From NCBI GenBank assembly GCA_023819375.1, contig JAMWDI010000001.1, positions 107,685 through 171,684 on the forward strand: 64,000 nucleotides of DNA, read 5' to 3'. Positions within the stretch are counted from its first letter, which is position 1. Each line of letters starts with the position of its first letter. A model generated the notes under the pieces. It did no database searches. It saw nothing but the letters and a program-made list of their open reading frames with translations, and was not told where the DNA came from. Of this stretch, positions 34,470 through 50,521 are shown piece after piece. Both the position numbers and the translations under genes were made by a program. Origin of the DNA: Candidatus Omnitrophota bacterium. Lineage in GTDB: Bacteria; Ratteibacteria; UBA8468; B48-G9; JAFGKM01.

Positions 34470-34473
34470 AATA

Positions 34474-34502: not shown

Positions 34503-34520
34503 TTTTAAAAAGGGGGAAAT

Positions 34521-35009
34521 TTGAAAAAAAGTTATTTATTTTTAACTGAAATATTATTACTTACTTTTATACTTGCAGGATGTGAATGTGGTCCTGGAAT
34601 ACCAGAAGAACCAATTGATAGACCTGAACCAGAATTACCACCACCTTCTCCACCTACTCCACCACCTTCTACTACTCAAGATGAATATTTCCAACTTGAA
34701 GGGAATAATCTTGTTTATTTTGATGGAAAAAATAAATATTATTTAATAAAAGGAAAAGTTGAAAGTGTAAAATTTGAAAAAGTAAAAGGAGATGGGAATT
34801 CTTATTATATAAGTGTAAATTTAAAACTAAAGGATGGACAAATAATAACCAATCTGGATTCAATAATTGCCTTAAGGAACATAAACAGAACTGTAAATTC
34901 GGGAACATCTTCAGGTGGTTCAGTTGATCCAGGTGGAGGTACTTCTCCACCACCTAATTTTGAACCAATAGAACCACCAGAAGTTGGCCCAGTAATACCA
35001 CCATATTAA
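34521..35009 (+). CDS. Lipoprotein with proline-rich linker (pilus-locus associated)
   Basis: 162 aa, TTG start. Lipobox LAGC, Pro-rich tracts (PPPSPPTPPPS; C-terminal PPPNFEPIEPPEVGPVIPP). Confidence 0.5.
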   Translation: MKKSYLFLTEILLLTFILAGCECGPGIPEEPIDRPEPELPPPSPPTPPPSTTQDEYFQLEGNNLVYFDGKNKYYLIKGKVESVKFEKVKGDGNSYYISVNLKLKDGQIITNLDSIIALRNINRTVNSGTSSGGSVDPGGGTSPPPNFEPIEPPEVGPVIPPY

Positions 35010-35010
35010 A

Positions 35011-36009
35011 ATGAAAAAAGGGATTGCTTTAATTTCAGTAGTAATGATTGTTATGATACTTACATTAATGGGTCTTGCTTTTTTGAATATGTCTGGTCTT
35101 GAAAATATATTATCTAAAAGACAAAATTTTTATTTAAAAGCCCTTAATATTGCAGAAGCAGGACTTGAAAGAGCCTTGTGGAAATTAACGAAACAGCCTA
35201 ATTGGAGAAGTGGATGGAATAACATTTCTTTTGATGATGGGTATTATAAAGTAACTCTATCAGATCAATCAGATGGAACAATCTTAATAATTTCTACTGG
35301 ATATTGTAAAAATATAAGTAAGACAGTAAAAGCAACTGTAAGAGTTTCGTCTTCCTCATCTTCTCCTTCGATATCTTTTACATTAGGAACATCTTTGGGT
35401 AATCTTGGAGATTTTCCAGGATCTTATGGAGACATAGGACAAAGTTTTACAACTGGCTCATCTCAAATAAAGGTTGCAAGAGTGGAAATGCAAATAAAAA
35501 AGGACAACCCAAACGTAAGTGATATTTATATGACTATAAGAAGTGGAAGCACAGTTGGTCAAATTTTAGGAACAAGCAATATAATACCAAATTCTCAAAT
35601 TCCTTCTGGAAATGCTTTATGGATTTCTTTTAATTTTGATCCCCCTGTTTTACTTCAACCAAATACAAAATATTATTTAAGATTATCTTCAATTCCGCCT
35701 TCTACAAATCCATATTCAGGAGCACAAGGTAAGATACACCTTGTCTATGCAAATCCTTCATATAGAAGAGTTGGAGGAGGACATACGAGTAGTGATATAG
35801 GAGATGGATTACCAAGTTATGATGAACCTGGTTTTGTTGAAGTAAGTCCGTATGTATATGGTGAAGCATATAGATATATAGGAAGAAACAATAATCCATC
35901 ATATCCAGGTGAAGTTTTAAATCATGATTTTAATTTCAGGATTTTTAGTACTTCAAGTGGAAGCGTAAACATAATAAACTGGACTGAAGAACCATACAAT
36001 AATTTTTAA
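35011..36009 (+). CDS. PilX-like minor pilin / pilus-associated protein
   Basis: 332 aa. N-terminal PilX_N-like hydrophobic segment (GIALISVVMIVMILTLMGLAFL), Ser-rich tract. Confidence 0.5.
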   Translation: MKKGIALISVVMIVMILTLMGLAFLNMSGLENILSKRQNFYLKALNIAEAGLERALWKLTKQPNWRSGWNNISFDDGYYKVTLSDQSDGTILIISTGYCKNISKTVKATVRVSSSSSSPSISFTLGTSLGNLGDFPGSYGDIGQSFTTGSSQIKVARVEMQIKKDNPNVSDIYMTIRSGSTVGQILGTSNIIPNSQIPSGNALWISFNFDPPVLLQPNTKYYLRLSSIPPSTNPYSGAQGKIHLVYANPSYRRVGGGHTSSDIGDGLPSYDEPGFVEVSPYVYGEAYRYIGRNNNPSYPGEVLNHDFNFRIFSTSSGSVNIINWTEEPYNNF

Positions 36010-36011: not shown

Positions 36012-37148
36012 ATGTTTACTATTTTCATTCCATATAGAATTTGTCCACTTGGGGCTCATATTGATCATCAAAAAGGGAAAGTCCTTGGAATTACTATTGA
36101 TAGAGGAACTATTCTGAAATTTGAAAAAATAGAAGGAAAGATAAAATTAAAAAGTATAAATTTTAATGAAGAAGTTGAATTTGAAATCAATGAAGAATTG
36201 GATAAAGAGGGAAAATGGTTTGATTTACTTAAAGGTTGTGTTTATATATTAAGAGATACTTTCAAAATTAAGAATGGAATTAAAGGAGAAATTCTGGGTC
36301 AACTTCCAAGTGGTGGCATTGGTTCCTCAGCAAGTTGTGGTCTTGCTTATCTGCTTGCTCTTGAATATGTAAATAACTTAAATATTCCTAAAGAGGAAAA
36401 CATTTTTTTATTTCAAAAAGTAGAAAATGAATATCTTAATGTTAAAAGTGGAATTCTTGACCAGTCAACAATTTTATTAAATAATAGTGACAAAAATTCA
36501 ATACTCTATCTTGATTGTAGAGATATAAAATATGAAAACGTTAAATCCAAAAATGAGATTGATTATTCTATTGTTATGGTCTACTCAGGGATTGAGAAAG
36601 TATTGCATGATACAGGCTATAACAAAAGAGTTGAAGAATGTAAAATGGCAGGGAAGCAAATTTTAGAATTTTTGGGCAAAAATTATGAAGGAGATATTTA
36701 TTTGAGAAATATTGATAAAGAGGTTTTTTTAAAATATAAAGAACAATTGCCAGAAAATTTAAGAAAAAGGGCTGAACATTTTTATAGTGAAATGGAAAGA
36801 GTTGAAAAGGGAATAGAATTTTGGAAATCAGGAGAAATAAAAGAATTTGGGAAATTAATTAAAGAATCTGGAGAAAGTTCAATAAAAAATTATGAGTGTG
36901 GAGGAAAAGAATTGATTAAAATTTATGAAATTCTAAATTCAATTAGGAATGTTTATGGGGCAAGATTTTCAGGGGCAGGGTTTCGTGGCTGGTGTTTTGG
37001 ATTTATTAAAAATGAAGAAAATGTAAAAAAAGAAATTAAAGAAATATTAGAAAATGAATATTTAAAGATTTTCCCACAATATAAGGAAAAATTTAAGATT
37101 ATTTTTGTGGATAAAAAACTTTCAATAGATATTAAGTCATTTATCTAA
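36012..37148 (+). CDS. GHMP kinase, galactokinase-like
   Basis: 378 aa. Galactokinase-type N-terminal signature (RICPLGAHIDHQKG), GHMP ATP-binding motif PSGGIGSSASCGLA. Confidence 0.7.
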   Translation: MFTIFIPYRICPLGAHIDHQKGKVLGITIDRGTILKFEKIEGKIKLKSINFNEEVEFEINEELDKEGKWFDLLKGCVYILRDTFKIKNGIKGEILGQLPSGGIGSSASCGLAYLLALEYVNNLNIPKEENIFLFQKVENEYLNVKSGILDQSTILLNNSDKNSILYLDCRDIKYENVKSKNEIDYSIVMVYSGIEKVLHDTGYNKRVEECKMAGKQILEFLGKNYEGDIYLRNIDKEVFLKYKEQLPENLRKRAEHFYSEMERVEKGIEFWKSGEIKEFGKLIKESGESSIKNYECGGKELIKIYEILNSIRNVYGARFSGAGFRGWCFGFIKNEENVKKEIKEILENEYLKIFPQYKEKFKIIFVDKKLSIDIKSFI

Positions 37149-38147
37149 TAAGATTTTTGGAACAACTTCTGAATTTTCAATAAACTCTGGAAATTTCCTT
37201 TCAACAAAAACTCTTCTTAAATTATTAACTGTAAAGTCCCCCATTTTTTTAATTGTCTCATAAGTATACCTTCCTAAATGAGGCATAATTATTACATTTT
37301 TAAACTTCAAAAGTGGATTATCTTTTAATATTTGTTTCATCTCAATTGCATCTTCTGCATATCCCCCGATTTTTCCTGATTTGAGATACTTTATAAGACT
37401 TTTTTCATCTATTAAATCTTTATGAGACGTATTAACAATTATAACTCCCTCTTTCATAATTTCAAATTCTTTTTCTCCTATCATATGATAGGTTTTTTCA
37501 TTTAAAGGGCAATGAAAAGAAATAATATCACAATTTTTACAGATATTTTCTAAACTGGAAGGCATTGCACTTCTTTTTATAATTTCTTCTTCTGTAAGTA
37601 ATGGATCATACGCATAAACATTCATTCCAAAGCCATTTTTTAAAATTTCACAAACTCTTGTTCCAACATTGCCTATCCCCAAAAGTCCTACGTTTTTATC
37701 TTTTAATTCAATTCCAACCAGTTCTATTCTTCTTCCCCATATTTCATTTTTCATAAACTCATAATTTTGATTTAATTTCCTTGCCATTAAAAGTATTAAT
37801 CCCACTGTATATTCAGCCATGGCATTTCTTTGTATCTCAAGTGGAAATCTACAAACTATTATTCCAAATTCTGTTGCAGATTTTATGTCAATATTTGAGT
37901 CTGCTATACCATGTCTTGAAATAATTACAAGTTTTTTCAAATTTTCAAGAATATTTCTGGAATAATAAGGTGAAAGTCCTATAATTAATCCATCAAAGTC
38001 AGATAATTCTTCAATTATTCTTTTTTCAGAAACATCGGAAGGAAAATTAATTCTTTCAACTTCTGAAAATTCTTTTAATTTTTCAATATGCTCAGGATAA
38101 ATTATCCCAAAACTTGTAGAATTAACTATTGCAATTTTATACTTCAT
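37137..38147 (-). CDS. D-isomer-specific 2-hydroxyacid dehydrogenase family protein (NAD-binding)
   Basis: Track ORF 37137..38174; start placed at ATG 38147 (MKYKIAIVNS) with AAGGAG Shine-Dalgarno. Rossmann GLLGIGNVG; overlaps the LarA-like gene. Confidence 0.7.
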   Translation of the reverse strand: MKYKIAIVNSTSFGIIYPEHIEKLKEFSEVERINFPSDVSEKRIIEELSDFDGLIIGLSPYYSRNILENLKKLVIISRHGIADSNIDIKSATEFGIIVCRFPLEIQRNAMAEYTVGLILLMARKLNQNYEFMKNEIWGRRIELVGIELKDKNVGLLGIGNVGTRVCEILKNGFGMNVYAYDPLLTEEEIIKRSAMPSSLENICKNCDIISFHCPLNEKTYHMIGEKEFEIMKEGVIIVNTSHKDLIDEKSLIKYLKSGKIGGYAEDAIEMKQILKDNPLLKFKNVIIMPHLGRYTYETIKKMGDFTVNNLRRVFVERKFPEFIENSEVVPKILLDK

Positions 38148-39405
38148 TTTTATCTCCTTTTTTATAAAGTTCATCTATGTCAGGGATATAACCATCTTTT
38201 CTTCTATACAGAATTTCTCCTGCATTTTTTACAACTAAAATTCCCTCATTTTCTTTATTTTCAAATTCTTCTATTTTTATAAGGTTGTAATCCATGTAAC
38301 CCAAGTTAACTTTTTTACAAATTTCTTCAGAAATTGAGGTTGCAAGTATAACTTCAATCCTTGGTTTTTCAATTCCATTAATATATGTTCCTATCCCTTT
38401 CACATGAGTTGAATGAGCAAGTATACATCCCGGATAATTTTTAAACTTATTCCATTGTTTCAAAAAATAATCTCTCGTGTGATATCCAATTTTCATTAAA
38501 TCTTTTCCATGGGTATACGAAATTTCCTTTACATGGGGTGCATAAATTATTAACTTCCCTCCATCTTCTACAACAGGTTCAAGTTTATACATACATTTTC
38601 CAGCAGTCCATATGTCTTCATACATTTCTGGTGCTATTGAAATTACAAAATTATAACTTCTATCAACATATTTGATATTAATCTGACTTGACAAATCTGC
38701 TGCTTTTTCCCATGCATCTACTTCTCCAATGAATAATCCCATTACTTTTTTTCCCTTTATAACACTACAAATTAACGTCTTTGGGATTTTTATAAAATTT
38801 GCTGCAATATTCAATAAATCTCTTACCGGTGTCTTTTTGAAGCCATTTATTTTTGGATTTGTAATTAATGCTCCAAGCCAGTGAAATTTATTTAGAAATT
38901 TTGGTCCAGAAATTCCCGGAAAAAAATATTTGTATCCACCAGAAAAGCCGACTACCTCGTGAGGAAATACAGGACCGTAGATAATAATTTCATCATAATT
39001 TAAAATCAAGGAATTAATTTCTATTTCTATTTTTTCATCCATTAACCCATTTGTTATTCTTTTCACATCTAATCTTTCAATAACTCCTATTTTGATTAAT
39101 TTTTCTGTTTTATTCCATTCATGTTGATAAATATTAAAATACTTTTCTTCACCATTTAGATGTAAGAAATTTTTTACTTTTTCCTCCGACATAATAGGAT
39201 GTGTCCCAAGTGCAATTAGGAAATCAAGTTTTTTAACTTTTGATGATAAAATATCAATCAAAAATTTAAAGAATAGATATGTTGGACCTGAACGAGTATT
39301 ATCTGGAATTATTACAATTATCTTTTTGTTTTTTAAATCCCTTTTATTAAGTTCTTTTTGGCAGATTTCATATATTTCTTTTTCAGAAAGTTCTTTTGTA
39401 TTCAT
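38137..39405 (-). CDS. LarA-like nickel-pincer-nucleotide (NPN) cofactor-dependent 2-hydroxyacid racemase/epimerase family protein
   Basis: 422 aa. PDNTR motif, ALGTH block, GFSGGYK with a His 17 residues later, consistent with the cofactor-tethering Lys and Ni-ligand His of LarA. Confidence 0.6.
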   Translation of the reverse strand: MNTKELSEKEIYEICQKELNKRDLKNKKIIVIIPDNTRSGPTYLFFKFLIDILSSKVKKLDFLIALGTHPIMSEEKVKNFLHLNGEEKYFNIYQHEWNKTEKLIKIGVIERLDVKRITNGLMDEKIEIEINSLILNYDEIIIYGPVFPHEVVGFSGGYKYFFPGISGPKFLNKFHWLGALITNPKINGFKKTPVRDLLNIAANFIKIPKTLICSVIKGKKVMGLFIGEVDAWEKAADLSSQINIKYVDRSYNFVISIAPEMYEDIWTAGKCMYKLEPVVEDGGKLIIYAPHVKEISYTHGKDLMKIGYHTRDYFLKQWNKFKNYPGCILAHSTHVKGIGTYINGIEKPRIEVILATSISEEICKKVNLGYMDYNLIKIEEFENKENEGILVVKNAGEILYRRKDGYIPDIDELYKKGDKNEV

Positions 39406-39436
39406 TTTTGAATTCTTAGAATTTAGTTATTTTATT

Positions 39437-39847
39437 TTACCTCTTTTTAGCCGCCATATCCACTATTTCGTTAATTAGATAAATTATCTCTTCTATTTTA
39501 GGATCTAAAATTATCCCCAAATCTTTTGGAATTTCTCCATATCTTTTAAGTTTCTCACTTTTTAAGTCATTCAAAATTTCCCATATTTTTGCACATCTGG
39601 AATTGACAATTGCAGTTTCTGCCATTTCTTCTTCTTTAATATTAAATTCTTTTTTTAAATCTTTAAGGACTTTTTTTATTTTACTTATTTTTAACATCAC
39701 TTCTTTTTCGTCAATTTGCTTTTTAATTTTCAAAAAAATTCTTTCCCTTTTCTCAAATATCAATTCAATCTCAATTAAAAGTTCCTCAACTGTTGATAAA
39801 TTGGACAAAAAAACATTTTTAATTAAATCAACTTTTGCCTTTTTCAC
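39437..39847 (-). CDS. Hypothetical coiled-coil protein
   Basis: 136 aa, Lys/Glu-rich heptad-like sequence, no recognisable motif. Confidence 0.35.
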   Translation of the reverse strand: MKKAKVDLIKNVFLSNLSTVEELLIEIELIFEKRERIFLKIKKQIDEKEVMLKISKIKKVLKDLKKEFNIKEEEMAETAIVNSRCAKIWEILNDLKSEKLKRYGEIPKDLGIILDPKIEEIIYLINEIVDMAAKKR

Positions 39848-40428
39848 TGTTTTATTGCTATCAAAAATATTGCTTTTATAAATGAAAATAAAATATATAA
39901 AAATAAAAAAGTCGAAAAAATGTAAAAAGGATTCTTTTGTTTTTTAAATGAAACAATAAAAGGAGTTTCTTTTTTATAAAGCCAATATTCATTTCCAAAT
40001 CTTCTTAAAAGAATTTTTTCTTCAATCATTTTAGAATAAAGAAAAATAAAAATTATTACACCAAAAGAAAGAAAAAGAAAAGAAATATTTTCAAAAAGAA
40101 AACTAAAAGCAAAAAATAAAAATGAATATCCAAGATACATTGGATTTCTACAAAAAGAATAAACCCCTTCTTTTACAAGCATTTGAGGTGGATCATTAGG
40201 CATCATTGTTCCTTTCCCAAATACATGAAGACAATAAATTGAAGAAATTGTAAAGTATAATCCGAAAAACAGATATATTAAAGATACTAATAACTTTATT
40301 ATAATATTTTGAGGAAACAAAAATTGAAATTTTTCTCCTGTAGGAAAAACAACATAAAATAAAATAGGGATAATTACCCATTCCCATAAAACACCAAGAA
40401 AAATATTAAGAATCCTTATTTTTTTCAT
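39844..40428 (-). CDS. Isoprenylcysteine carboxyl methyltransferase (ICMT)-family membrane methyltransferase
   Basis: 194 aa polytopic membrane protein with CRNPMYLGY motif typical of the ICMT/PEMT family. Confidence 0.55.
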   Translation of the reverse strand: MKKIRILNIFLGVLWEWVIIPILFYVVFPTGEKFQFLFPQNIIIKLLVSLIYLFFGLYFTISSIYCLHVFGKGTMMPNDPPQMLVKEGVYSFCRNPMYLGYSFLFFAFSFLFENISFLFLSFGVIIFIFLYSKMIEEKILLRRFGNEYWLYKKETPFIVSFKKQKNPFYIFSTFLFLYILFSFIKAIFLIAIKQ

Positions 40429-40882
40429 TTTTAAATTTTAATATTAAAATATATGAAATTAAAAAAGTCAAAATTCCTCCACAAAAAGCACAAAAAAAAC
40501 ATCCTGTTACAAGTGGTTTTCCAAAAGTTATAATTGAATAATATACAAAACTTTTAATATTTTTAAAATCATGAATAGTAAAATTTGTTTTTGTGTTTAA
40601 AATAAATGACCCAACTTTATAACAAAAATAATAAGTAAAAGGAATTTGATAAGGAATACCTGTGGGTATTGAACCTCCAATGAATGTTGCAATAAAACTT
40701 AAATTAAATAATTTTGAGAATAAATAACATAAAATTGTTTGAAAACCAATTGTTGGGGTAAAACCAATGAAAACTCCTATAGATAAAGAAATAGCAAGTT
40801 TTAAGGGTTGATTTTTAAAAATATTTAATTCTTTTCTCCATTCTTTTTTTAAATAAGATAAACTCACTCTTTTAATATTCAA
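40406..40882 (-). CDS. DUF2062-like small membrane protein
   Basis: 158 aa with Gly/Pro-rich TM segments (GVFIGFTPTIGFQT); often linked to glycosyltransferase loci. Confidence 0.4.
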   Translation of the reverse strand: MNIKRVSLSYLKKEWRKELNIFKNQPLKLAISLSIGVFIGFTPTIGFQTILCYLFSKLFNLSFIATFIGGSIPTGIPYQIPFTYYFCYKVGSFILNTKTNFTIHDFKNIKSFVYYSIITFGKPLVTGCFFCAFCGGILTFLISYILILKFKNEKNKDS

Positions 40883-42179
40883 CTTTTATAACCTCCCATG
40901 GTATAAAATCATAATTTATTCCTCCAATTTTTATGTTTGATGAAAAAAATAGATATTCAGGATATTTTAATTCAGAAATTTTTATTTTAAAACTGACCTT
41001 ATCTTTCAACTTTTCATACTTGAGATCCTTATAAAAATTTGAATTTACAGAGGTTATAAATTCATTTTTTCTTTTTAAGTTTATTTTAAGTTTAGGCATT
41101 TTAGAAAATTCAATGTTCTTTTTAAATGGAAAGAAGTAAAAAACATACTCTGTTGGGCCTAATATTTTAATTTTGTGAATAAATTCGATTTTTAAAAATT
41201 CATCATCTTTTATTAAATTTATATAAAATGGATAAGATAAATTTTTGTAATTCTCAAATTCGGCTTCTTTTTCACTCTCAAAAACAAGATTTTTTGTTAA
41301 AATCAAGTCATTTTTTGTATAAAATATTTCATTTTTTTTAACAAAAGAAAAAAACCATTTTTTTCTAAACATCATTTGAGAAGTAAAACATTCAAGAGAT
41401 ATCTTCTTTTTTTTAACTTCTTCATTACTCAATGGAACAATATATGTTTTAAATAGTAAGAAAATCTCTGGAAGAAATAATTTTTCTGAGTTTTTTAAAG
41501 GATAATTTCTAAAATGAATTAAATAAATGTAAACTTCAGGATTTAACCCTTCTATTTCTAAAAGAGATGCTCTAACAAAATTATAAAGTGCTCTATGATC
41601 AACATTTGTATCAAAAGGAGAAGTTATAAATATTTTAGAAGGCCTAATCTCATTTATTATCTTCTTTATATCTTCTAAAATACTTTCACCTTTATAAGGT
41701 TTCCCAAAAGAGTAATTTTCTTTATAAGGGACATAACTTGCTTTTGTTAAAAAACTTCTAAAAGGTTTTTTATTTTCACCCCAGTAATTTTCCCATATTT
41801 TAAGAGTCCCAAAATCAGGGTAACCAAGAAAAATTAAGTTATTCTCCGAAACTCCGAGAATTTTTGTTGCTTTTATAGATTCCTTTCTTCTAATTTCTCC
41901 TAATTTTATATAATCAGAAGGGTTTAAAATTATCTTTTTTTCATAAATCCTGTAAGGTAATTGATTATGATCTCCATTTGTTAAATAAACAATATAAACT
42001 TCGCCTTTCTTTTTTATTACTTTTTGAATTAACCCTCCACAACCTAAAATTTCATCATCAGGATGGGGAGCAAAAATAATAATTTTTTCATTTTCATTAA
42101 TTTGCAAATTTCTAATACTTCCCCAGCAAAGAGAAATCAATGTTGAAATTAACATTAATATTTTTTTAAAATTTTTCAT
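40872..42179 (-). CDS. PIG-L/LmbE-family N-acetylglucosaminyl deacetylase with C-terminal extension
   Basis: 435 aa. Signal peptide, PIG-L motif FAPHPDDEILGCGG, HxxH-type metal site; about 200-aa C-terminal domain of unknown function. Confidence 0.6.
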   Translation of the reverse strand: MKNFKKILMLISTLISLCWGSIRNLQINENEKIIIFAPHPDDEILGCGGLIQKVIKKKGEVYIVYLTNGDHNQLPYRIYEKKIILNPSDYIKLGEIRRKESIKATKILGVSENNLIFLGYPDFGTLKIWENYWGENKKPFRSFLTKASYVPYKENYSFGKPYKGESILEDIKKIINEIRPSKIFITSPFDTNVDHRALYNFVRASLLEIEGLNPEVYIYLIHFRNYPLKNSEKLFLPEIFLLFKTYIVPLSNEEVKKKKISLECFTSQMMFRKKWFFSFVKKNEIFYTKNDLILTKNLVFESEKEAEFENYKNLSYPFYINLIKDDEFLKIEFIHKIKILGPTEYVFYFFPFKKNIEFSKMPKLKINLKRKNEFITSVNSNFYKDLKYEKLKDKVSFKIKISELKYPEYLFFSSNIKIGGINYDFIPWEVIKVEY

Positions 42180-42181
42180 TT

Positions 42182-43738
42182 TTACTTATGCCTTCCATTT
42201 TTACTTATATCTTCTAAAAATCTCTTCGCTAAAGTAAATCCAGGGTCTATTTCTAATGTTTTATACAAGTATTCAAGCATTTTCTGTTTATCTCCCATAT
42301 CATAATAAACAAGAGCCATTAAAAAATTACTTTTTGGGTCATTTGGTAAAATTTTTAAGTAATCCAATGCCTTTTTATATGCCTCTTTAATTTTTCTTTC
42401 TCTTAAATCTTTTTCTATCCCTTTTGCACTTAAATATCCGAAAATTTTTTTACTCTCTTCAGGAAGTAAATCTCCTGGAATTACATTAAAAAAATAAGCG
42501 AAAAGAAAAGAAAAAATAAAAAATAGAAATGGTTTTAATAGTTTTTTATTATTAAATATCTCCCTTTTAGACCACACAATTAAATAGGAAGAAGTAATAA
42601 AAAAACAGGCTACAGCAGGAAATCTATATCTGTCTGTGATGAAAAATAAAACAACCCATAAAATGTTTGATAATGTAAAAAATATAAAAAGTGAATTTCT
42701 CCTAAAATTTTTAAAAAATAAAAACAATCCAGAAATGCCTAATGGAAAAACAAAACCCAATTTTATAAATGCTATCTTTAAAAAAGGAATTAATTCTTCC
42801 ATTAAATAAACATTCATATTTTGAGGCCACTCATAACTTGTAAAAAAAAGATGAATTTTTCTTAAAAAAAGTTTCCAAAATTGAATAGAAGATGGCGAAA
42901 GAAGATGTCCCTTGGGATAGTGAAAAAGTCCTATTGAATCTGAACTATTACCAATTCTCCAATTTTCAGGACCATTTGAACATATCGGAACAAAAACTTT
43001 TCCAATATACCAATTTCTTATGGTTATAGGTAGTATTACACAACCACTTATAAAAATTAGAATAAAAAATATGAAAATTTTATTTTTAATAGATGACATT
43101 TTTCCAGATATTAATTTTGTTTCAGGATATATTAAAAGCCCTATAAATAAAAATGGTATAAAAATTCCAATTGTAGGTTTAGCAAGAGCAGAAAATCCGA
43201 GTAAAACACCAGATATAATCCACCAGAGAAGATTTTTTTTCTGAAGAGCAATATAAATTGAGGTTATAAAAGAAATATAAAGAAGTGTTATTAAATTATC
43301 ACTTAAAATTGAAGAAGAATAAACTACAAAAGTTCTGTAAAATGCACATAGAAAACATGCAACGATTCCTGTCAAATCATCAACTAATAGTTTACCTAAT
43401 AAATATATAATAAAGCATAAGAAAACATCAAGCAAAATCTGAATAAAATAAATTCCAAATAAGTTTCCTTGAACAAAAAAATAAACCATTGATAAAAAAT
43501 AAGGATAAAATGGAGCCATATAGAATACTTTTCCATCGACATAAAAAGGATGCCTTAATATATCTTCTGCCCATAATATGAATGTTTTTTGGTCATGCTT
43601 ATCCATTATATAGGGGTCAAAATAAACTGTATTTTTTAAGAATATCAAATAAACTAATCTAATAATAAATCCACAAAACAATATTACCCCTACCAATATT
43701 TTTTTCCCATTTCCTATTTTTCTTATCCTTTTAACCAT
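42182..43738 (-). CDS. Polytopic membrane glycosyltransferase (ArnT/PMT, GT39/GT83-like) with C-terminal TPR repeats
   Basis: 518 aa, more than 10 predicted TM helices in the N-terminal two thirds, C-terminal TPR-like repeats. Confidence 0.5.
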   Translation of the reverse strand: MVKRIRKIGNGKKILVGVILFCGFIIRLVYLIFLKNTVYFDPYIMDKHDQKTFILWAEDILRHPFYVDGKVFYMAPFYPYFLSMVYFFVQGNLFGIYFIQILLDVFLCFIIYLLGKLLVDDLTGIVACFLCAFYRTFVVYSSSILSDNLITLLYISFITSIYIALQKKNLLWWIISGVLLGFSALAKPTIGIFIPFLFIGLLIYPETKLISGKMSSIKNKIFIFFILIFISGCVILPITIRNWYIGKVFVPICSNGPENWRIGNSSDSIGLFHYPKGHLLSPSSIQFWKLFLRKIHLFFTSYEWPQNMNVYLMEELIPFLKIAFIKLGFVFPLGISGLFLFFKNFRRNSLFIFFTLSNILWVVLFFITDRYRFPAVACFFITSSYLIVWSKREIFNNKKLLKPFLFFIFSFLFAYFFNVIPGDLLPEESKKIFGYLSAKGIEKDLRERKIKEAYKKALDYLKILPNDPKSNFLMALVYYDMGDKQKMLEYLYKTLEIDPGFTLAKRFLEDISKNGRHK

Positions 43739-43759
43739 TTAACCAATTGTTCAATTGAT

Positions 43760-44077
43760 TCAAAACTTTTTATCTTTTATCTTTTCTACATATTTTTCTA
43801 AAGTATTGAAAATTTTCACAACTGCTTTATCTTTAATAAAATACTTTTTTACATAACTTTCTGTTTCATATCTAACCAAATCTATCTGTCTAAGATTCCT
43901 AAGAGTTTTTGAAATACTCGCAATTGTAAGGCCAAGTTTTTTACTCATTCCAGTAGGAGTCATTTTTCCTTCTATTATTAGCATTTTCATTATCTGATAT
44001 GCTGTTGGATTTCCCAAAACTCTACATATTCTTGATGCTCTATATTCTTTTTCTGGCATTCTTCTTTTCTTTCCCAT
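43760..44077 (-). CDS. ArsR/SmtB-like winged-helix transcriptional regulator
   Basis: 105 aa, wHTH pattern (ASRICRVLGNPTAYQIMKML...LGLTIASISKTLRNL). Confidence 0.55.
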   Translation of the reverse strand: MGKKRRMPEKEYRASRICRVLGNPTAYQIMKMLIIEGKMTPTGMSKKLGLTIASISKTLRNLRQIDLVRYETESYVKKYFIKDKAVVKIFNTLEKYVEKIKDKKF

Positions 44078-44089
44078 TTTACCAATTGG

Positions 44090-45106
44090 TCAAATAATTA
44101 AATCATTGACACAAAGAAAATCAGTTTTATAGTAAGTTACTACGTCTGCAATAATATCTTTTATTGAGTAATTTAAATGGAAATCAACAATTTTTTTTAT
44201 TTTGCTTAAATCAGGAATTCTCTTCATCATGTCTTCAAATCCCTTTTTATAAATATTTTCAGGATTTATAAATTTAATCTCTGATTCACTTTTGGTTATT
44301 TCTTTTATAAGTAAGGCCAGATCCTTTATTTTAATTTCATTTTCACTCCCTATATTAAATACTTCTCCATAACTTTCATCTTTGTAAATTAATTTCAATA
44401 TTATTTCGACTACATCTTTCACATGGATAAAACATCTTGATTGTTCACCATCCCCAAAAACAGTTATAGGTTGTCCTGTTAATGCCTGTTTAACAAAACG
44501 TGGTATAACCATACCATATCTATCTGTCTGCCTTGGGCCAACAGTGTTAAATAACCTTACTATAATAACTGGTAACCCAAATTCTTCCTGAAAAGCAAAG
44601 GCAAGAAATTCATCAATTGCCTTTGCGCAAGCATATGACCATCTTTTCTTTTTTGTTGAACCAATAACTATATCTGCTTCTTCATTAAAAGGAACATTTA
44701 AATTTTTTCCATAGATTTCAGATGTTGATGTTATTAAAATTCTTTTTTTATATTTTGCACATAACTTTAAAACATTACATGTTCCCTCAATATTTACAAG
44801 AATCGATTCAATTGGATTTTCTATAACTTTTTTCACACCTACAATTGCAGCAAGATGGAAAACAAAATCAACTTTTTTTATAAGTTCTTCAAGTATATAT
44901 TCATTTAAAATTGTATCAATGAAAAGAAAAAATTTAGGATTGTCTAAAAGTGTTGAAATGTTTTTTAACCTTCCTGTTGAAAGATCATCTATAACAAAAA
45001 CAGTTTTTCCTTGATTTATAAGTTCCTCTGCAAGATGAGAACCAATAAAGCCACATCCTCCTGTTATTAAAAATCTCTCCATTTTATTCAGATTTTCTAA
45101 CTTCAA
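44090..45106 (-). CDS. NAD-dependent nucleotide-sugar epimerase/dehydratase (extended SDR)
   Basis: 338 aa. Rossmann [11 protein letters not shown], catalytic YxxxK (YACAKAI). Confidence 0.85.
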
Positions 45107-45848
45107 TGCCCTTTGATTTTAAATAATTTTTAATTTCTTGAATTGTAAGGATTCTAAAATGCAGAAGAGATGCAAGTAAAATTGCACTTGCTTTCCCTTC
45201 TACAATCGCTTCATATAAATGTTCAAGTTTTCCTGCTCCTCCAGAAGCAATTACAGGAATATTCACAGATTCACTAACTTTTTTCGTCAATTCTATATCA
45301 TATCCCTCTTGAGTTCCGTCTCTATCTATACTGGTTAAAAGTATCTCGCCTGCTCCTAAATCTTCAACTTTTTTCGCCCACTCAATAACATCAAGTCCGG
45401 TTGGTGTTTTTCCACTTTCAATGTAAACTTCCCATTTATCCTTGTCTATTTTTTTCCCATCAATAGCAACAACTATACATTGACTTCCAAATCTTTTTGC
45501 TCCTTCTTCAATAATTTTAGGATTTCTTACAGCAGAAGTATTTATTGATACCTTATCTGCACCGTTTGAAAGTAAATCTTCTATATCTTTTATTGTGGAA
45601 ATTCCTCCACCAACAGTAAATGGAATAAACACAACATCAGCAACTTTTTTAACAACTTCAACCATAGTTTTTCTGCCTTCAATTGTAGCACTTATATCAA
45701 GAAAAACAATTTCATCTGCTCCTTCTTTGCAATAATAAGAGGCATTTTCAACAGGGTCGCCTGCAATTCTTAAATTTTCAAATTGTACTCCTTTCACAAC
45801 TTTGCCATTTTTTACATCTAAACAAGGAATAATTCTCACTGCAACCAT
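45084..45848 (-). CDS. hisF: Imidazole glycerol phosphate synthase cyclase subunit HisF (or sugar-pathway paralogue)
   Basis: 254 aa (beta/alpha)8 barrel with [16 protein letters not shown] start and phosphate-binding SGGAG, TSID blocks. Confidence 0.8.
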
Positions 45849-46444
45849 TTTCCCTCCAATAAATTTTTTAAAAATAATAAACCAATTTTTCCACTTTTTT
45901 CTGGATGAAATTGAACTCCAACAATATTTTCTTTTGAAATGACTGACGGAAAATTTATTCCATATTCTGTTTCTCCTATAATTAAACTTTTATTGGTTTT
46001 AACATAATATGAGTGTGCAAAGTAAAAATAGGAATTATCTTGAATATTTTCAAAAAAATTCTCTCTTTTTAAAATTTTAACTCTATTCCAACCCATATGA
46101 GGAACTTTCAAATTTTTATCCTTAAATTTAATTACTTTTCCTTTTAAAATTCCCAATCCTTCCTTATTGCCTTCTTCACTCCATTCAAAAAGTAATTGAA
46201 ATCCAAGACAAATGCCAAGAAAGGGCATTCCTTTCTCTATCCATTTTTTTATTTCATTTCTCAAATCTGTTTCTTCTAAATATTTCATTCCTGAAGCAAA
46301 ATGTCCGACTCCAGGAAGAATCAAAAATTTTATTTTATTTAAAACTCTAAGATTTTCAATTAAAATAACCTCTTTGCCAAGATATCTTATTGCTGAAATT
46401 ACACTATAGATATTTCCTACATTATACTTTACAATCCCAACCAT
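45836..46444 (-). CDS. hisH: Imidazole glycerol phosphate synthase glutaminase subunit HisH (class I GATase)
   Basis: 202 aa. LPGVGHF, catalytic GICLGFQ, VPHMGWN and HPE motifs. Overlaps hisF. Confidence 0.8.
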
Positions 46445-46459
46445 TATCTTTTTTAAAAA

Positions 46460-47398
46460 TTATACATACTCAATTGTACTTGGTGGTTTTGGAGTTATAT
46501 CATATAAAACTTTAACAACACCAGGAACTTCTTTTAATATTCTATCTCTAATTTTAAATAATCTATCCCAAGGAATTTTTACTACCTCTGCAGTTAAAGC
46601 ATCTTCTGAAATAACTGCTCTAATACTTATTATATCTCCAAGTAATCTTTTACCTTCAACAATTCCTGTTGCTTTATCAGAAAAAAGGACAGGAAATGCT
46701 TGAAAGATTTCTTTTTCTTTAAGTTCTTCTTCTACTATTTTTGTCGCTTTTCTTATTTTTTCTACCCTATCTCTTGTAACTTCACCTAAAATTCTCGTTG
46801 CAAGTCCTGGACCTGGAAAAGGTTTTCTTTCATATACTTTTTTGGGTAACCCCAACTCTTTTGCAACCTCTCTCACTTGAGGTTTAAAAAGTTCTTTCAA
46901 GGGTTCTATAATGGTAAGACCAAAAAAAGCAGGATTTAAGCCTATTTGAGAAAGGACATTATGTTGTGTTTTTATCCCTTTTTGAGTTTCAATAATATCT
47001 GCTGCAATTGTTCCTTGAATTAAAAAATCTGCAGAATAACTCCTCACTGCTTGGCCAAGAATTTTGTAAAAAGTTTCTCTAAATGCCTTCCTTTTTTCTT
47101 CTGGATCTATTTTTCCTTTTAAAGAGTCAAAAAAATTATCCTCAACATCCCATACTTCAAGTTCAATTTCATATTTTTTCAATACCTCTTTTACTTCTTC
47201 TGCCTCATTTTCTCTCATTAAACCATCATTTATAAATAAAACTACAAGATTATCCCCTATTGCTTTTTTGGTAAGAACTGCACAAACGGTACTGTCTACT
47301 CCTCCAGATGTTGCAACTAGTGCTTTTTTATCCTTAATTTTTTTCTTCAGTTCTTCAATTTTTTCTTTTATAAACTTTTTTGGACTAAATTTCGCCAT
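46460..47398 (-). CDS. guaA: GMP synthase ATP-pyrophosphatase subunit (GuaA subunit B type; no fused GATase domain)
   Basis: 312 aa. PP-loop SGGVDS, QGTIAADIIE, EPLKELFK, PFPGPGLATR, DITPKPPSTIEY motifs of the GMP synthase C-terminal domains. Confidence 0.8.
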   Translation of the reverse strand: MAKFSPKKFIKEKIEELKKKIKDKKALVATSGGVDSTVCAVLTKKAIGDNLVVLFINDGLMRENEAEEVKEVLKKYEIELEVWDVEDNFFDSLKGKIDPEEKRKAFRETFYKILGQAVRSYSADFLIQGTIAADIIETQKGIKTQHNVLSQIGLNPAFFGLTIIEPLKELFKPQVREVAKELGLPKKVYERKPFPGPGLATRILGEVTRDRVEKIRKATKIVEEELKEKEIFQAFPVLFSDKATGIVEGKRLLGDIISIRAVISEDALTAEVVKIPWDRLFKIRDRILKEVPGVVKVLYDITPKPPSTIEYV

Positions 47399-47624
47399 TT
47401 ATTTCCCCTCCTTTCTATATTAAAAATTTTTCGAATCTGTCCCTTTCTTTTTTCTATTTTTATCTTTTAAAATAATTTACCCCAGATTTCATGTCAAAAA
47501 GATACTATTGGATTATCTTTATTTTATCATACAAATTAAGAAGTTCAAATTTATATACATTTAAATATTTTTTGTAAAAATAGGGAATTTTACTTTTTAC
47601 ATTGCTAAACTACTTGTTAATATC

Positions 47625-48845
47625 TTAAAATAATGTCATTTCTTCAAAATTATTCCTATCCTCAATTTTAATTTCTATTTTCCCAAACTCTCCATCATAA
47701 CCAGGTTTTATTATCACATTGCCATCTCTCACTTTTTTTATACCCCCAAATATTTTCTCATCAATTTTACTCCTCAGTTCCTCCTCATCTGCTTCGAGAA
47801 GAACATATAATTCTGTTCCAATTTTATTTATAATATCAAAATAACTTTTTTGAACTATTTGAGAAGTTATTTCTTTATTCAAAACACAACTTATTATTTG
47901 ATCAAGTGGAACAAGTTTCTTAAATGGAACATATTTTTGTGGCTTTTCGTCTAATTTCCTATCTGCAAGTTCTTCAACTCTATGCATTACTCCAACAGTA
48001 ACTTTTTTCCCACAAACAGGACAGAGATAATTATTTTTTTTTGTTTCTTCTGGGGAAAGACAAACTCCACAATTTCTGTGGCCGTCATAGTGATATTTCC
48101 CTTCTTCTGGAAAATATTCAATAGTCATTTTAAAATTTTTATTTTTTAGTATTTCTATAAGTTGTTTAAAATCAAATTTATCAAAAAAAACATTTGCTTC
48201 TCTCCCTATCTTTGAAGGCGAATGAGCATCAGAATTTGAAATTAAAGAATATCTGTCTAACCTTGACAATCTCCAGTTCATTTCAGGATCGCTACTTAAA
48301 CCTGTTTCAAGAGCAAAAATTTCACTCGTTAAATCTCCAAAACAATCTTCAATTCTATCAAAACCAGAATTAGAACCAAAAAGAGAAAAATGTGGTGTCC
48401 AAATATGGGCAGGAACAACAAAACCAAATTCATCCACTTCTTTTAAAATTTCTAAAAGTTCTCTTGCAGAAAGTTGTAAAGTTGGACGTCCATCAGCATT
48501 TAAATCACCATACTTTTCAATATTTCTATTGAATTTTTCAACTTTTTCAATAGTTGAGATAAATATTATATTATGAACCTTTTTTGTAACACCTTTATAC
48601 TCAAAAATATTGCATACCTCTCCTGTCAGAATAAAATCAATTCCACCATACTGATAAATGCCAAATCGTTCTGTTTCTTTAAGATTTCTTTTTAACTCAT
48701 GAAACCAGTAAAAATGTGTAATATCTCCCGTTCCAAGGAGATTAATACCCTTATATTTTGCCCACTTCACAAGCCCATCAAGTTCCATATCTTTACTTGT
48801 TGCTCTACTATATTTTGAATGAATATGGAAATCAGCAATATACAT
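47625..48845 (-). CDS. PHP-domain nuclease, endonuclease Q (EndoQ/TIGR00375)-like
   Basis: 406 aa. N-terminal PHP motif YIADFHIHSKYSRATS, further His/Asp metal-ligand blocks, C-terminal zinc finger (CPVCGKK). Confidence 0.55.
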   Translation of the reverse strand: MYIADFHIHSKYSRATSKDMELDGLVKWAKYKGINLLGTGDITHFYWFHELKRNLKETERFGIYQYGGIDFILTGEVCNIFEYKGVTKKVHNIIFISTIEKVEKFNRNIEKYGDLNADGRPTLQLSARELLEILKEVDEFGFVVPAHIWTPHFSLFGSNSGFDRIEDCFGDLTSEIFALETGLSSDPEMNWRLSRLDRYSLISNSDAHSPSKIGREANVFFDKFDFKQLIEILKNKNFKMTIEYFPEEGKYHYDGHRNCGVCLSPEETKKNNYLCPVCGKKVTVGVMHRVEELADRKLDEKPQKYVPFKKLVPLDQIISCVLNKEITSQIVQKSYFDIINKIGTELYVLLEADEEELRSKIDEKIFGGIKKVRDGNVIIKPGYDGEFGKIEIKIEDRNNFEEMTLF

Positions 48846-49381: not shown

Positions 49382-50521
49382 TTAACTTAATTCCTTATAA
49401 ATTTCTAAAGTTCTTTTTGCTGTATTTTCCCATGTAAACATTTCACTTCTTTTTAATCCTTTCTCTATTAATTTTTTTCTTAATTCATTATCTTCTATTA
49501 ATTTCAATATAGCCCACCCTATCTCTTCTTCATCTCTTGGATTAACAAGTAAAGCAGCATCTCCTGCCACCTCAGGCATAGATGATACATTTGAAGTTAT
49601 AACTGGAACTCCGCATCTCATTGCTTCAAGTATCGGAAGTCCAAAGCCTTCATATAAAGAAGGATAAATAAATATATCAGAACCACTATAAAGTAAAGGC
49701 AGATCTTGATAAGGAACATAATTTGTAAGAACAATGTCTTTTCTGACTCTCACCGGTAACTCATTCAATTTTTTTAAAAACTCCTTTTTTTTCCATCCCA
49801 ATTTACCACAAATAACAAGTTGATAATCAGGTATCTTTTCTTTAATTTTTGCAAAAGTATTTACCAACCTTATATGATTTTTCTTGGGTTCAACAGTACA
49901 AACACACAACAAGTATTTTTTATAAATTCCGTATTTTCTTTTAATATTTTCAATTCTTTCTTTATCTTCAACTCTATGAAAAAAGTCATCAACTCCTTCA
50001 TAAACAACACTTATTTTTTCTGGTTTAACATTAAAATAATTTATTAAATCTTCTTTTGTTGAATTTGAAACAGTAATTATTTTATCTGATTTTCTTATGG
50101 CACGTATAACAGCAAATTTAAATGTTTCAACTTCTAAGGGATGAAACCAAGAAGGAAAAATGATATATCCTAAATCATGAAAGGTTATAATTTGTTTACC
50201 ATAAATATTTAAACAATAATAAGGCTGAACAAGTATGTGAATTAAATCAAATTTTCCATGTAAAATTTCAACTGGAAAAATCATTTGAAGTGAAGAAACT
50301 AATTTATTTGGAAGTATTTTAACAGATATATAAAAGTTTTCTGATTTAATTTTTCTTTGTAGATAAAATTTTTCTTTATATTTTTCAATACTACATCCAA
50401 ATAGAATATAAAGATTTTCCTTGTCTATCTTAGCAAGATTAGTTACAAGATAATAAGCATACCAACTAATGCCGGTTTTTCTTTTTACAAGAAAACATGA
50501 TATATCAATCCCTATTTTCAT
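49382..50521 (-). CDS. Glycosyltransferase family 4 (GT-B, group 1)
   Basis: 379 aa. E-x7-E region YEGFGLPILEAMRCGVPVITS. Confidence 0.85.
   Translation of the reverse strand: MKIGIDISCFLVKRKTGISWYAYYLVTNLAKIDKENLYILFGCSIEKYKEKFYLQRKIKSENFYISVKILPNKLVSSLQMIFPVEILHGKFDLIHILVQPYYCLNIYGKQIITFHDLGYIIFPSWFHPLEVETFKFAVIRAIRKSDKIITVSNSTKEDLINYFNVKPEKISVVYEGVDDFFHRVEDKERIENIKRKYGIYKKYLLCVCTVEPKKNHIRLVNTFAKIKEKIPDYQLVICGKLGWKKKEFLKKLNELPVRVRKDIVLTNYVPYQDLPLLYSGSDIFIYPSLYEGFGLPILEAMRCGVPVITSNVSSMPEVAGDAALLVNPRDEEEIGWAILKLIEDNELRKKLIEKGLKRSEMFTWENTAKRTLEIYKELS

Follow-up and report, generated by a model that had tools for sequence, protein, structure and literature searches.

A putative composite operon segment of two separately conserved envelope-glycan modules in a Candidatus Omnitrophota bacterium

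We analyzed a 64-kb stretch of DNA from a Candidatus Omnitrophota bacterium, referred to here as the window, in which seven co-directional open reading frames (ORFs) occupy the whole run from 39437 to 45106 on the minus strand. The ORF listing bears out the original prediction in this respect, as the seven genes are contiguous and exist as claimed. The intergenic distances within the run vary from -23 to +21 nt, and no terminator-like site was detected in a scan across 39437-45106. The close packing extends beyond these genes to span 37137-47398, with hisF, hisH, and a GMP-synthase-like gene upstream and LarA-like and 2-hydroxyacid dehydrogenase genes downstream; the seven genes are therefore not a unit by themselves. 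Profile searches against Pfam and NCBIfam upheld all of the family assignments made earlier, and only the label of the short-chain dehydrogenase/reductase (SDR) had to be altered.

The SDR gene (44090..45082, minus strand) is the first gene of what we call module A. The listed ORF covers 44090-45106, but the ATG at 45082, located 1 nt past the hisF stop codon, is a likelier start than the TTG at 45106 and gives a protein of 330 aa, compared with 329 aa for the ortholog at locus L085. Pfam scores were 184 bits for Epimerase and 192 bits for GDP_Man_Dehyd. The protein had been called an epimerase; it is in fact nearest to UDP-glucuronate decarboxylases, its best solved relatives being human UXS1 (171 bits) and the decarboxylase (C-) domain of ArnA (~139 bits). 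The alignment retains GxxGxxG, STSEIYG, YxxxK, FNTVGPR, and QSRCF, with STSEIYG/YACAK/QSRCF aligned to STSEVYG/YDEGK/QTRAF of hUXS1. The catalytic set of the UDP-glucuronate decarboxylases (S/T-S-E, YxxxK, and a conserved Arg) is present, and the motifs STSE(I/V)YG, YxxxK, and FNTxGPR are shared with these enzymes. All NCBIfam equivalog models scored under their cut-offs (PRK11908, 158.6 vs 294; ArnA, 157.5 vs 777; LegB-like, 178 vs 475). Judging from its motifs, this extended SDR most resembles the UDP-glucuronate decarboxylases of the UXS/ArnA type.

The second gene of module A (42182..43738, minus strand) encodes a glycosyltransferase predicted to adopt the GT-C_A fold, with a Pfam PMT_2 match of 57 bits (cut-off 26) and about 2.5 C-terminal TPR repeats that are detected weakly. 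In the model of this protein, a catalytic acidic residue would lie in the first periplasmic loop, as expected for ArnT, and no large periplasmic domain is apparent. No ArnT model was found among the NCBIfam matches, identity to ArnT is 8-11%, and the fold matches fail to separate ArnT from PMT or OST. Within the 64-kb window, the SDR is the only Arn partner gene found; no ArnC-like GT2 adjoins module A, the sole candidate being a weakly scoring gene 5.4 kb upstream of the SDR. Protein O-mannosyltransferases (GT39, PMT) carry a lumenal/periplasmic MIR domain, which is missing here, Pfam detecting PMT_2 and TPR only. The NCBI label "glycosyltransferase family 39" given to this protein depends on PMT_2 alone.

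Between these two genes lies a gene for an ArsR/SmtB-type winged-helix protein of 105 aa (43760..44077, minus strand), which scores barely over the Pfam cut-offs (HTH_20, 29.1 vs 27; HTH_5, 22.9 vs 22) and under the NF033788 cut-off (42.7 vs 55). ArsR/SmtB metal-sensing sites consist of an α3 CxC, an α3N site, or an α5 cluster of His/Asp/Glu residues. None of the canonical metal-site residues is present in this protein, whose sequence contains one Cys and lacks His altogether. Furthermore, no ArsR ortholog occurs between the SDR and GT-C genes in any of the four relatives that have the junction (L085, L100, L105, and L108). The gene is bracketed by two copies of a CAATTGGT(A/T)AA spacer, of which L105 has a single copy. 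These CAATTG-containing flanks represent a duplicated ancestral spacer, not a recognizable operator. The idea that the cluster is under an ArsR-type regulator thus did not hold: by sequence comparison, the gene is a recent, lineage-specific insertion within the operon and not a conserved controller.

Module B starts with a gene (40872..42179, minus strand) for a predicted exported zinc de-N-acetylase of the PIG-L/LmbE fold. PIG-L (PF02585) scores 101 bits against a cut-off of 28 and spans residues 35-204 of 435, and the protein has the LmbE Rossmann-like fold. PIG-L/LmbE enzymes carry an AHPDD motif close to the N-terminus and an HxDH motif later. Across 64 PIG-L sequences, AHPDDE (H39, D41, and D42) and D194-H195 show little or no variation, and an invariant Asn (N192) takes the place of the first His of HxDH. 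Fold comparison of the last 150 residues identified the "large extra domain" noted earlier as a CBM9/DOMON-like β-sandwich (residues ~290-435). To our knowledge, the characterized PIG-L/LmbE members (MshB, BshB, PIG-L, and Dac) are all cytoplasmic, and our literature search found nothing on exported enzymes of this family. The deacetylase departs from this location in its predicted features, namely a signal-like N-terminal segment (59/64 family members), the CBM9/DOMON-like C-domain, and a transmembrane (TM) helix in the fusions described below. Because of these features, we consider it probable that this enzyme, which has a signal peptide, is periplasmic.

The second gene of module B (40406..40882, minus strand) encodes an integral membrane protein of 158 aa with a DUF2062 domain (88 bits vs 27). 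No solved relative was found by sequence, and the literature search on DUF2062 returned nothing apart from Brucella BspA. It is followed by a gene (39844..40428, minus strand) for an integral-membrane SAM methyltransferase of 194 aa from the ICMT/PEMT family (PEMT, 50 bits vs 25; ICMT, 21 bits), which bears an extra C-terminal TM helix. Its single solved relative is the Methanosarcina acetivorans ICMT (4a2n), and the SAM-binding C-terminal motif RNPMYLGY...EEK..L..RFG..Y..Y is invariant across 15 orthologs. The LmtA model (22.4 bits, cut-off 325) and the ICMT equivalog (37 bits, cut-off 160) both scored far under their cut-offs.

An exhaustive profile search of the methyltransferase family, using representatives of 50%-identity clusters, returned 11 representatives under an E-value of 1e-30. 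Three of these 11 are PEMT-PIG-L fusions (P0235, P0237 (Caldisericota), P0241 (Ratteibacteria)) and one (P0236) is a fusion of PEMT to an unrelated CE4 deacetylase carrying a TFDDG motif. At L069, a DUF2062 gene precedes another PEMT-PIG-L fusion, bringing these to four overall, and at L001/L002 DUF2062 itself is fused to PEMT. In every methyltransferase-deacetylase fusion, a single predicted TM helix separates the methyltransferase motif from the deacetylase; the topology was derived from hydropathy and the positive-inside rule and by comparison with a single ICMT structure. On contigs that are long enough, all PEMT orthologs adjoin DUF2062, and they also adjoin PIG-L where the contig reaches. 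Physical coupling is indicated by the recurrence of the fusions, and the methyltransferase, the deacetylase, and the DUF2062 protein are likely to be functionally coupled.

The wider PIG-L+CBM9 family comprises more than 500 proteins that are mostly solitary, and the methyltransferase is therefore dispensable for the basic function of the deacetylase. Such an enzyme could be a catabolic exo-enzyme acting on chito-oligosaccharides or scavenged GlcNAc glycans, with unrelated neighbors in the window. This seems very improbable given that fusion to a membrane methyltransferase has arisen independently four times and that the triad with DUF2062 is conserved, and no chitinase, GlcN kinase, or sugar transporter was found in the window or in most loci. 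Another proposal is that module B targets peptidoglycan rather than a glycolipid: the deacetylase would strip acetyl groups from GlcNAc/MurNAc in the sacculus, as do CE4 enzymes of the PgdA type, and the methyltransferase would act on a precursor such as lipid II. Most peptidoglycan deacetylases belong to CE4, and the P0236 fusion links a CE4 domain to the same methyltransferase clade; however, ArnD and exopolysaccharide deacetylases are also within CE4. The predicted periplasmic location with a glycan-binding module would suit the sacculus, as would the SurA-like periplasmic chaperones adjoining PIG-L at L087. So would the D-Ala-D-Ala ligase near 2/27 loci of the wider family. Against this reading, the recurrent envelope-related neighbor in the wider family is an LpxL-type lipid A acyltransferase (6/27 loci), and no consistently adjoining peptidoglycan synthesis or hydrolase genes were found. 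We regard a peptidoglycan target as unlikely.

The last gene of the run (39437..39847, minus strand) encodes a Lys/Glu-rich helical protein of 136 aa that is conserved and gave no match in Pfam, NCBIfam, or PADLOC. It had been listed as a coiled-coil protein of the cluster; its neighborhoods place it apart from the deacetylase and methyltransferase genes. Homologs are found directly 3' of PEMT at L100/L101 (3e-44) and directly 3' of GT-C at L105-L107 (1e-23), where module B is missing, and none was found at L085. This small gene travels with module A, on the GT-C/LarA side.

Analyses of the gene neighborhoods revealed five contexts with the SDR and GT-C genes side by side: the window, L085/86, L100, L105-107, and L108. 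Module B is missing from the vicinity of two of these (L105-107 and L108). In 3/5 contexts, LPS-core or O-antigen genes adjoin module A: at L105, it closes a block with two GT9 genes and GT4 and GT2 genes; at L100, a GT9 gene is immediately upstream; and at L108, Wzm/Wzt are downstream. The module B triad, in which DUF2062 invariably sits between PIG-L and PEMT, was found in at least eight contexts (the window, L085/86, L100/101, L098/99, L090, L102-104, and, as fusions, L001/002 and L069), with no module A nearby in four of them (L090, L102-104, L001/002, and L069). The five and eight contexts are incompletely independent because all sequences are metagenome assemblies of related uncultured lineages, and part of the synteny (hisH-hisF upstream, LarA/2-hydroxyacid dehydrogenase downstream) merely reflects this relatedness. 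The two modules are contiguous in three related genomes, with junctions ranging from 2 nt to overlapping (the L085 PIG-L is 69% identical to that of the window), and they may cooperate in this lineage.

In the window and at L085 and L100, the genes are contiguous, share one direction, and overlap at their junctions, which would fit one integrated pathway in the style of Arn or of the NaxD/FlmK lipid A aminosugar route. The SDR would supply a nucleotide sugar for transfer onto undecaprenyl phosphate, PIG-L would de-N-acylate it, and, once flipped by DUF2062, it would be attached to lipid A or core by GT-C; PEMT, like LmtA, would add a methyl group to a lipid A phosphate. A deacylase, a GT-C enzyme, and a small membrane protein follow the logic of the ArnD/ArnT/ArnEF and NaxD/FlmK routes, and both the similarity of the SDR to the ArnA decarboxylase domain and the LPS genes adjoining module A at L100, L105, and L108 are consistent with it. 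However, the modules are separate in most contexts and, in GCA_026414725.1, a solitary PIG-L (L087) and an SDR-GT-C pair (L108) are on different contigs. ArnD and NaxD act at the cytoplasmic face prior to flipping, whereas PIG-L is here predicted to be exported with a CBM9-like domain, and a UXS-type product lacks the N-acetyl group that PIG-L would have to cleave. In addition, no ArnB-like aminotransferase, formyltransferase, or adjoining ArnC-like GT2 was found, and the LmtA and ArnT equivalog models were not matched. A single pathway is thus unlikely.

The original prediction had treated the seven genes as one pathway and taken their co-conservation as its yardstick; the set instead divides into SDR+GT-C and PIG-L+DUF2062+PEMT, each occurring alone. 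We therefore have good confidence that the architecture is composite, with two separately inherited modules side by side. The general theme of membrane and periplasmic enzymes modifying an envelope glycoconjugate was upheld. On balance, the gene content suggests that the seven-gene run represents a composite segment of an operon, with two independently conserved envelope-glycan modules accompanied by an inserted regulator-like gene and a small gene.

Under this two-module organization, the SDR would turn UDP-glucuronate into a UDP-pentose or UDP-4-keto-pentose, a polyprenyl-phosphate glycosyltransferase encoded outside the cluster would put the sugar onto a lipid carrier, and GT-C would move it to an envelope acceptor at the periplasmic face. 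Because module A is repeatedly beside GT9 and Wzm/Wzt genes, the likeliest acceptor would be LPS core or lipid A. Module B may pair two chemistries across the membrane, with the SAM site of the methyltransferase being cytoplasmic and the Zn-dependent PIG-L de-N-acetylase periplasmic. At the inner leaflet, the methyltransferase would methylate a group that is either anionic or an amine, and export would be followed by N-deacetylation, with the CBM9-like domain predicted to bind glycan and DUF2062 possibly acting as a membrane adaptor or lipid-handling subunit. The role of module B could in this way be to remodel the charge on an envelope glycan or glycolipid that contains GlcNAc; we tentatively propose LPS or another envelope glycolipid as the likeliest target.

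The combination had not been recognized as a described system, and our literature search likewise yielded no match. A close parallel is the Arn pathway: an ArnA/UXS-type decarboxylase-like SDR adjoins a PMT_2-family GT-C, a de-N-acylase and small membrane proteins are close by, and LPS genes adjoin in relatives. However, the ArnB aminotransferase, the formyltransferase domain, and an adjoining ArnC are missing here, and scores fall short of the ArnT and ArnA equivalog models. The deacylase adopts the PIG-L fold and is predicted to be exported, whereas ArnD is a CE4 enzyme of the cytoplasmic face. The deacylase module is also inherited independently of the SDR/GT-C pair. In the lipid A hexosamine modifications by NaxD/FlmF2/FlmK of Francisella and LgmABC of Bordetella, an N-acetyl-hexosamine likewise loses its acetyl group to give a cationic amine, with the involvement of a GT-C transferase. 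NaxD, a YdjC-superfamily enzyme, deacetylates undecaprenyl-phosphate-GalNAc before export, whereas here a deacetylase of the PIG-L fold, with a signal peptide and a CBM9-like domain, is coupled to a methyltransferase. The early steps of GPI-anchor synthesis also use PIG-L and then GT-C mannosyltransferases such as PIG-M, but GPI PIG-L is at the cytoplasmic face and the one here is predicted to be exported; no PIG-A-like GT4 or inositol-lipid genes adjoin, and the PIG-L and GT-C genes are not co-inherited.

The periplasmic or extracellular CE4 glycan deacetylases PgdA, PgaB, and IcaB likewise are exported, depend on a metal, and remove N-acetyl groups from GlcNAc polymers, often with the help of an extra glycan-binding domain; moreover, one fusion within the methyltransferase clade studied here carries a CE4 domain in place of PIG-L. 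Their catalytic fold is unrelated, and synthase or porin partners are missing here; we know of no such system that is coupled to an ICMT/PEMT methyltransferase and DUF2062. Finally, Leptospira LmtA, an ICMT-like enzyme that methylates the lipid A 1-phosphate, and the ICMT/PEMT enzymes in general are also integral-membrane SAM methyltransferases with the RxPxY...EE...FG..Y motif. We know of no described fusion of these enzymes to DUF2062 or deacetylase domains, whereas the methyltransferase studied here has an extra C-terminal TM helix and is recurrently fused to such domains. Module B, in which a predicted exported deacetylase is tied by fusions to a membrane methyltransferase, may represent an undescribed form of envelope-glycan remodeling.

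The original prediction had placed seven genes on the minus strand at 39437-45106, and these are indeed present as seven back-to-back ORFs in a window with a GC content of about 27%. All of the domains it had named were reproduced with Pfam and NCBIfam: an extended SDR (44090..45082), a small winged-helix protein of the ArsR type (43760..44077), a PMT_2 (GT-C) glycosyltransferase with a weak C-terminal TPR region (42182..43738), a PIG-L deacetylase whose profile match spans only residues 35-204 of 435 (40872..42179), a DUF2062 protein (40406..40882), a membrane methyltransferase of the PEMT/ICMT family, hereafter PEMT (39844..40428), and a small helical protein of 136 aa that falls in no family of either collection (39437..39847). 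The general theme of glycoconjugate modification also stood, whereas the single seven-gene pathway, the control by ArsR, and the "epimerase" label did not. Identical or near-identical proteins have been deposited from Candidatus Omnitrophica MAGs under the labels "PIG-L family deacetylase" and "glycosyltransferase family 39 protein".

Intergenic distances inside the run range from -23 to +21 nt. The TTG start listed for the SDR (45106) overlaps hisF by 23 nt; the start is probably the ATG at 45082, one nt past the hisF stop, which gives a protein of 330 aa, and the ortholog in L085 (L-numbers denote homologous loci in related genomes) has 329 aa. Packing is equally tight upstream, to hisF, hisH, and a GMP-synthase-like gene, and downstream, to LarA-like and 2-hydroxyacid dehydrogenase genes, so the seven genes are not set off as a unit by their spacing. 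A scan of 36500-48000 returned 79 promoter-like sites, where shuffled sequences gave 65±8, and detected no terminator within the run, both results being uninformative in DNA this AT-rich (27% GC). Within the sole sizeable intergenic gap upstream of the long minus-strand run (226 nt, 47399-47624), the sequence at 47497-47469 resembles a promoter (TTGACA-17-TATTTT), and transcription of the entire run may begin in this gap.

Neighbourhoods were collected around PIG-L, PEMT, and GT-C homologs, and every collected locus was then searched with the window proteins. Co-conservation of the seven genes, which the original prediction had itself proposed as the test that could refute it, was not found; the neighbourhoods instead separate into two modules, and their separate inheritance is strongly indicated. 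Module A is the SDR gene followed directly by the GT-C gene, adjacent in the window, L085/86, L100, L105-107, and L108. Module B has the order PIG-L, DUF2062, PEMT and was found in the window, L085/86, L100/101, L098/99, L090, and L102-104. In L105-107, where the GT-C protein is 71% identical to that of the window, the module A pair closes a block holding two GT9 genes together with GT4 and GT2 genes, and it is directly followed by a homolog of the small helical protein and then by a LarA-like gene; PIG-L, DUF2062, and PEMT are all missing there. In L090 and L102-104, module B is flanked by mutL (or reverse gyrase) and ogg, with neither SDR nor GT-C within 10 kb. A GT9 gene lies directly upstream of the pair in L100, and downstream of the pair in L108 come toxin-antitoxin genes, a MarR gene, and a Wzm/Wzt ABC exporter of the O-antigen type. 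The assembly GCA_026414725.1 carries a solitary PIG-L ortholog (L087) and the SDR-GT-C pair (L108) on separate contigs. L100 and L105-107 also have the small helical gene, which L085 lacks.

Two of the module B loci have peculiarities of their own. The reverse gyrase gene of L090 (L090:6429-9998) immediately precedes the PIG-L triad, and because of this gene the organism is probably a thermophile. In the Ratteibacteria MAG GCA_046296715.1, PIG-L is broken over several reading frames (L098:1-1092), either as a pseudogene or through an assembly error, and the downstream DUF2062 and PEMT genes are intact.

The ArsR gene is missing from the four relatives that have the SDR/GT-C junction (L085, L100, L105, L108). 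From the stop codon of the SDR gene to the start codon of the GT-C gene, L105 reads TGA, GCAATTAGTAAA, ATG, and the window holds a nearly identical spacer in two copies, CCAATTGGTAAA before the ArsR gene and ...ACAATTGGTTAA before the GT-C gene. Two CAATTGGT(A/T)AA spacers, at 43739-43759 and 44078-44089, bracket the gene, and L105, which lacks ArsR, has one. From this arrangement, the gene looks like an insertion with duplication of the junction. Conserved control by ArsR is therefore unsupported, as the gene is inserted and all four junction-carrying relatives are without it. The CCAATTGG palindrome, whose sole occurrence in the 64-kb window is within the ArsR-flanking spacers, was considered as an ArsR operator, a role judged less likely; a duplicated ancestral spacer explains it better, because L105 has the identical 12-nt spacer once. 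The protein contains zero histidines and one cysteine, so that canonical ArsR/SmtB metal sites cannot form, and it does not reach the metalloregulator cut-off of NCBIfam; it may nonetheless be able to bind DNA. An anti-phage defence reading of the genes was discarded, the PADLOC match being limited to generic wHTH similarity of the ArsR protein to Csa3.

Among solved structures, the SDR is closest to human UDP-glucuronate decarboxylase (171 bits) and to the decarboxylase domain of ArnA (about 139 bits), and the GxxGxxG, STSE(I/V)YG, YxxxK, FNTxGPR, and Q(S/T)R(C/A)F motifs are kept; these relatives and motifs take the place of the epimerase assignment. The protein falls below every curated equivalog cut-off, and its product, UDP-xylose or a 4-keto-pentose, is thus a prediction. 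The GT-C model, built from a 55-sequence alignment (pLDDT 94.9), predicts a compact GT-C_A enzyme with about 2.5 C-terminal TPR repeats and without a large periplasmic domain; Asp49 in the first loop is invariant. Sequence searches against solved structures gave TPR designs and chance matches only, and fold searches with the model did not separate ArnT-like, PMT-like, and OST-like enzymes. The two proteins form an ordinary-looking Arn-like pair, without family assignment, that would produce a UDP-pentose and decorate the LPS core or lipid A through a polyprenyl-phosphate intermediate.

On the same strand, 4-6 kb upstream, a GT4 gene overlaps a small GT2 gene (229 aa) at 49382-51194. The GT2 protein (50505-51194) has weak matches to polyprenyl-phosphate hexose synthases (AglJ, PpgS, ArnC, DPM1, Dol-P hexose transferase) and is a possible, distant candidate for donor loading of GT-C. 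On the other side, 36012-39405 encodes a GHMP (galactokinase-like) kinase, a 2-hydroxyacid dehydrogenase, and a LarA-like nickel-pincer enzyme, whose top NCBIfam match, "putative hexonate epimerase", reaches 190 bits where the cut-off is 500. This block may form a sugar-acid pathway; it is syntenic with SDR/GT-C in L085, L100, and L105, and in L098 it comes after module B. Positions 25213-36009 of the plus strand hold what looks like a complete type IV pilus cluster (two T2SSE ATPases, T2SSF, two pilins, PilM, a secretin, and a PilX-like protein), which is also found beside the gene cluster in L098 and L100. Because the his genes, the two glycan modules, and the sugar-acid block are all equally tight here, operon-like packing in streamlined AT-rich genomes should not be equated with a pathway.

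The PIG-L protein of module B (modelled from a 64-sequence alignment; pLDDT 91.6) begins with a Sec-type signal, MKNFKK plus a short hydrophobic stretch, and a comparable segment is present in 59 of the 64 family members. Export is predicted from this signal, and sequence analysis strongly indicates an exported glycan de-N-acetylase with a glycan-binding domain. To our knowledge, no characterised member of the PIG-L family has an exported location. A single Arn/NaxD-like pathway for all the genes is unlikely, given the separately inherited modules, the predicted periplasmic location of the deacetylase, and the missing ArnB/ArnC-type genes. A GPI-like pathway was discarded on account of the absent co-inheritance and, again, the predicted location. 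The SAM-binding motif of PEMT is invariant; its sole solved relative is the archaeal ICMT 4a2n, and the window protein carries one additional C-terminal TM helix. For DUF2062, sequence searches against solved structures found no relative and the literature search returned only Brucella BspA; on exported LmbE/PIG-L enzymes, a literature search yielded no relevant publication.

The strongest result came from gene fusions. The PEMT ortholog alignment served as a profile with which 1.84 billion cluster representatives were searched exhaustively, and 11 of them matched at E < 1e-30. Three are PEMT-PIG-L fusions (P0235, P0237 (Caldisericota MAG), and P0241 (Ratteibacteria MAG)), and in one, P0236 (404 aa), PEMT is joined to a CE4 polysaccharide deacetylase with its TFDDG motif intact. 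In addition, L069 has a DUF2062 gene followed by a single PEMT-PIG-L protein, and L001/002 encode DUF2062 and PEMT as a single 346-aa protein. There are thus three kinds of fusion, one of which pairs PEMT with a deacetylase of unrelated fold. In all methyltransferase-deacetylase fusions, one predicted TM helix separates the deacetylase from the K/R-rich SAM-binding tail, an arrangement that would place the two active sites on opposite sides of the membrane. These fusions tie the PEMT clade functionally to predicted exported de-N-acetylation and strongly indicate that methyltransferase, DUF2062, and deacetylase are physically coupled. They also contradict, being fusions to membrane proteins, a catabolic chito-oligosaccharide deacetylase, a highly improbable reading to which the nearest structure and one locus point. 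The CE4 fusion is the main support for peptidoglycan as the module B target, which we regard as very unlikely. A metagenome scan with the PEMT alignment confirmed at least 7 loci, six of the 7 outside the orthologous clade, and a scan of the genome collection with the PIG-L alignment found no close PIG-L relative (best, 41% identity). In a weaker match, P0354 (611 aa), a related methyltransferase is joined to a PlsC-type acyltransferase; together with P0236, this suggests that the methyltransferase clade generally pairs with lipid- or glycan-modifying enzymes.

The wider PIG-L+CBM9 family has more than 500 matches, mostly in Omnitrophota, with others in MAGs labelled Planctomycetota and Verrucomicrobiota, and its members mostly occur without the other window genes nearby. 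Enzymes of the PIG-L fold were otherwise known only at the cytoplasmic face; this family adds a widespread, predicted exported branch with a carbohydrate-binding module. Two genes on each side of PIG-L were counted in 27 loci, which are possibly phylogenetically close, so that the counts are only suggestive: a divergent CDF zinc exporter (8/27), a PF04008 protein (6/27), an LpxL-type lipid A acyltransferase (6/27), an MFS transporter (5/27), and Lnt (2/27). The exporter (Cation_efflux + ZT_dimer) is divergent by coordinates, lies just upstream of PIG-L (about 1 kb), is listed for L004, L007, L009, L010, L011, L015, L018, L026, and L028, and might supply zinc to the exported enzyme. The PF04008 protein and the acyltransferase lie downstream in 6 loci. 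Such neighbours are suggestive of a periplasmic zinc enzyme acting on the envelope, with a leaning to lipid A/LPS.

We propose that module B would methylate a lipid or lipid-linked substrate at the inner leaflet and, after export, de-N-acetylate a GlcNAc-type residue. Going further, module B could be an unrecognised trans-membrane modification machine in which methylation and de-N-acetylation are coupled to export and DUF2062, as a lipid-translocating or substrate-holding subunit, passes a lipid-linked GlcNAc-type glycan from the cytoplasmic-face ICMT-like methyltransferase to the periplasmic deacetylase. Such a machine, quite unlikely in this full form, would account for the independent PEMT fusions to two unrelated deacetylase folds and, if real, would give DUF2062 its first biochemical role. 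Module B in any case offers a testable handle on this widespread family without known function.

Cultured representatives of Omnitrophota, Ratteibacteria, and Caldisericota are few or absent, and the envelopes of these groups are known nearly only by gene content. The recurrent welding of ICMT/PEMT enzymes to predicted exported deacetylases of two folds, together with DUF2062, points to a conserved envelope-remodelling step outside the described pathways. Both proposed module B reactions would lower net negative charge, as do the known lipid A modifications by LmtA and Arn. The literature ascribes the same effect to NaxD. As judged by comparative analysis, PIG-L(+CBM9)-DUF2062-PEMT is an undescribed variant of envelope-glycan remodelling, and the comparative support for its predicted coupling across the membrane is unusually good.
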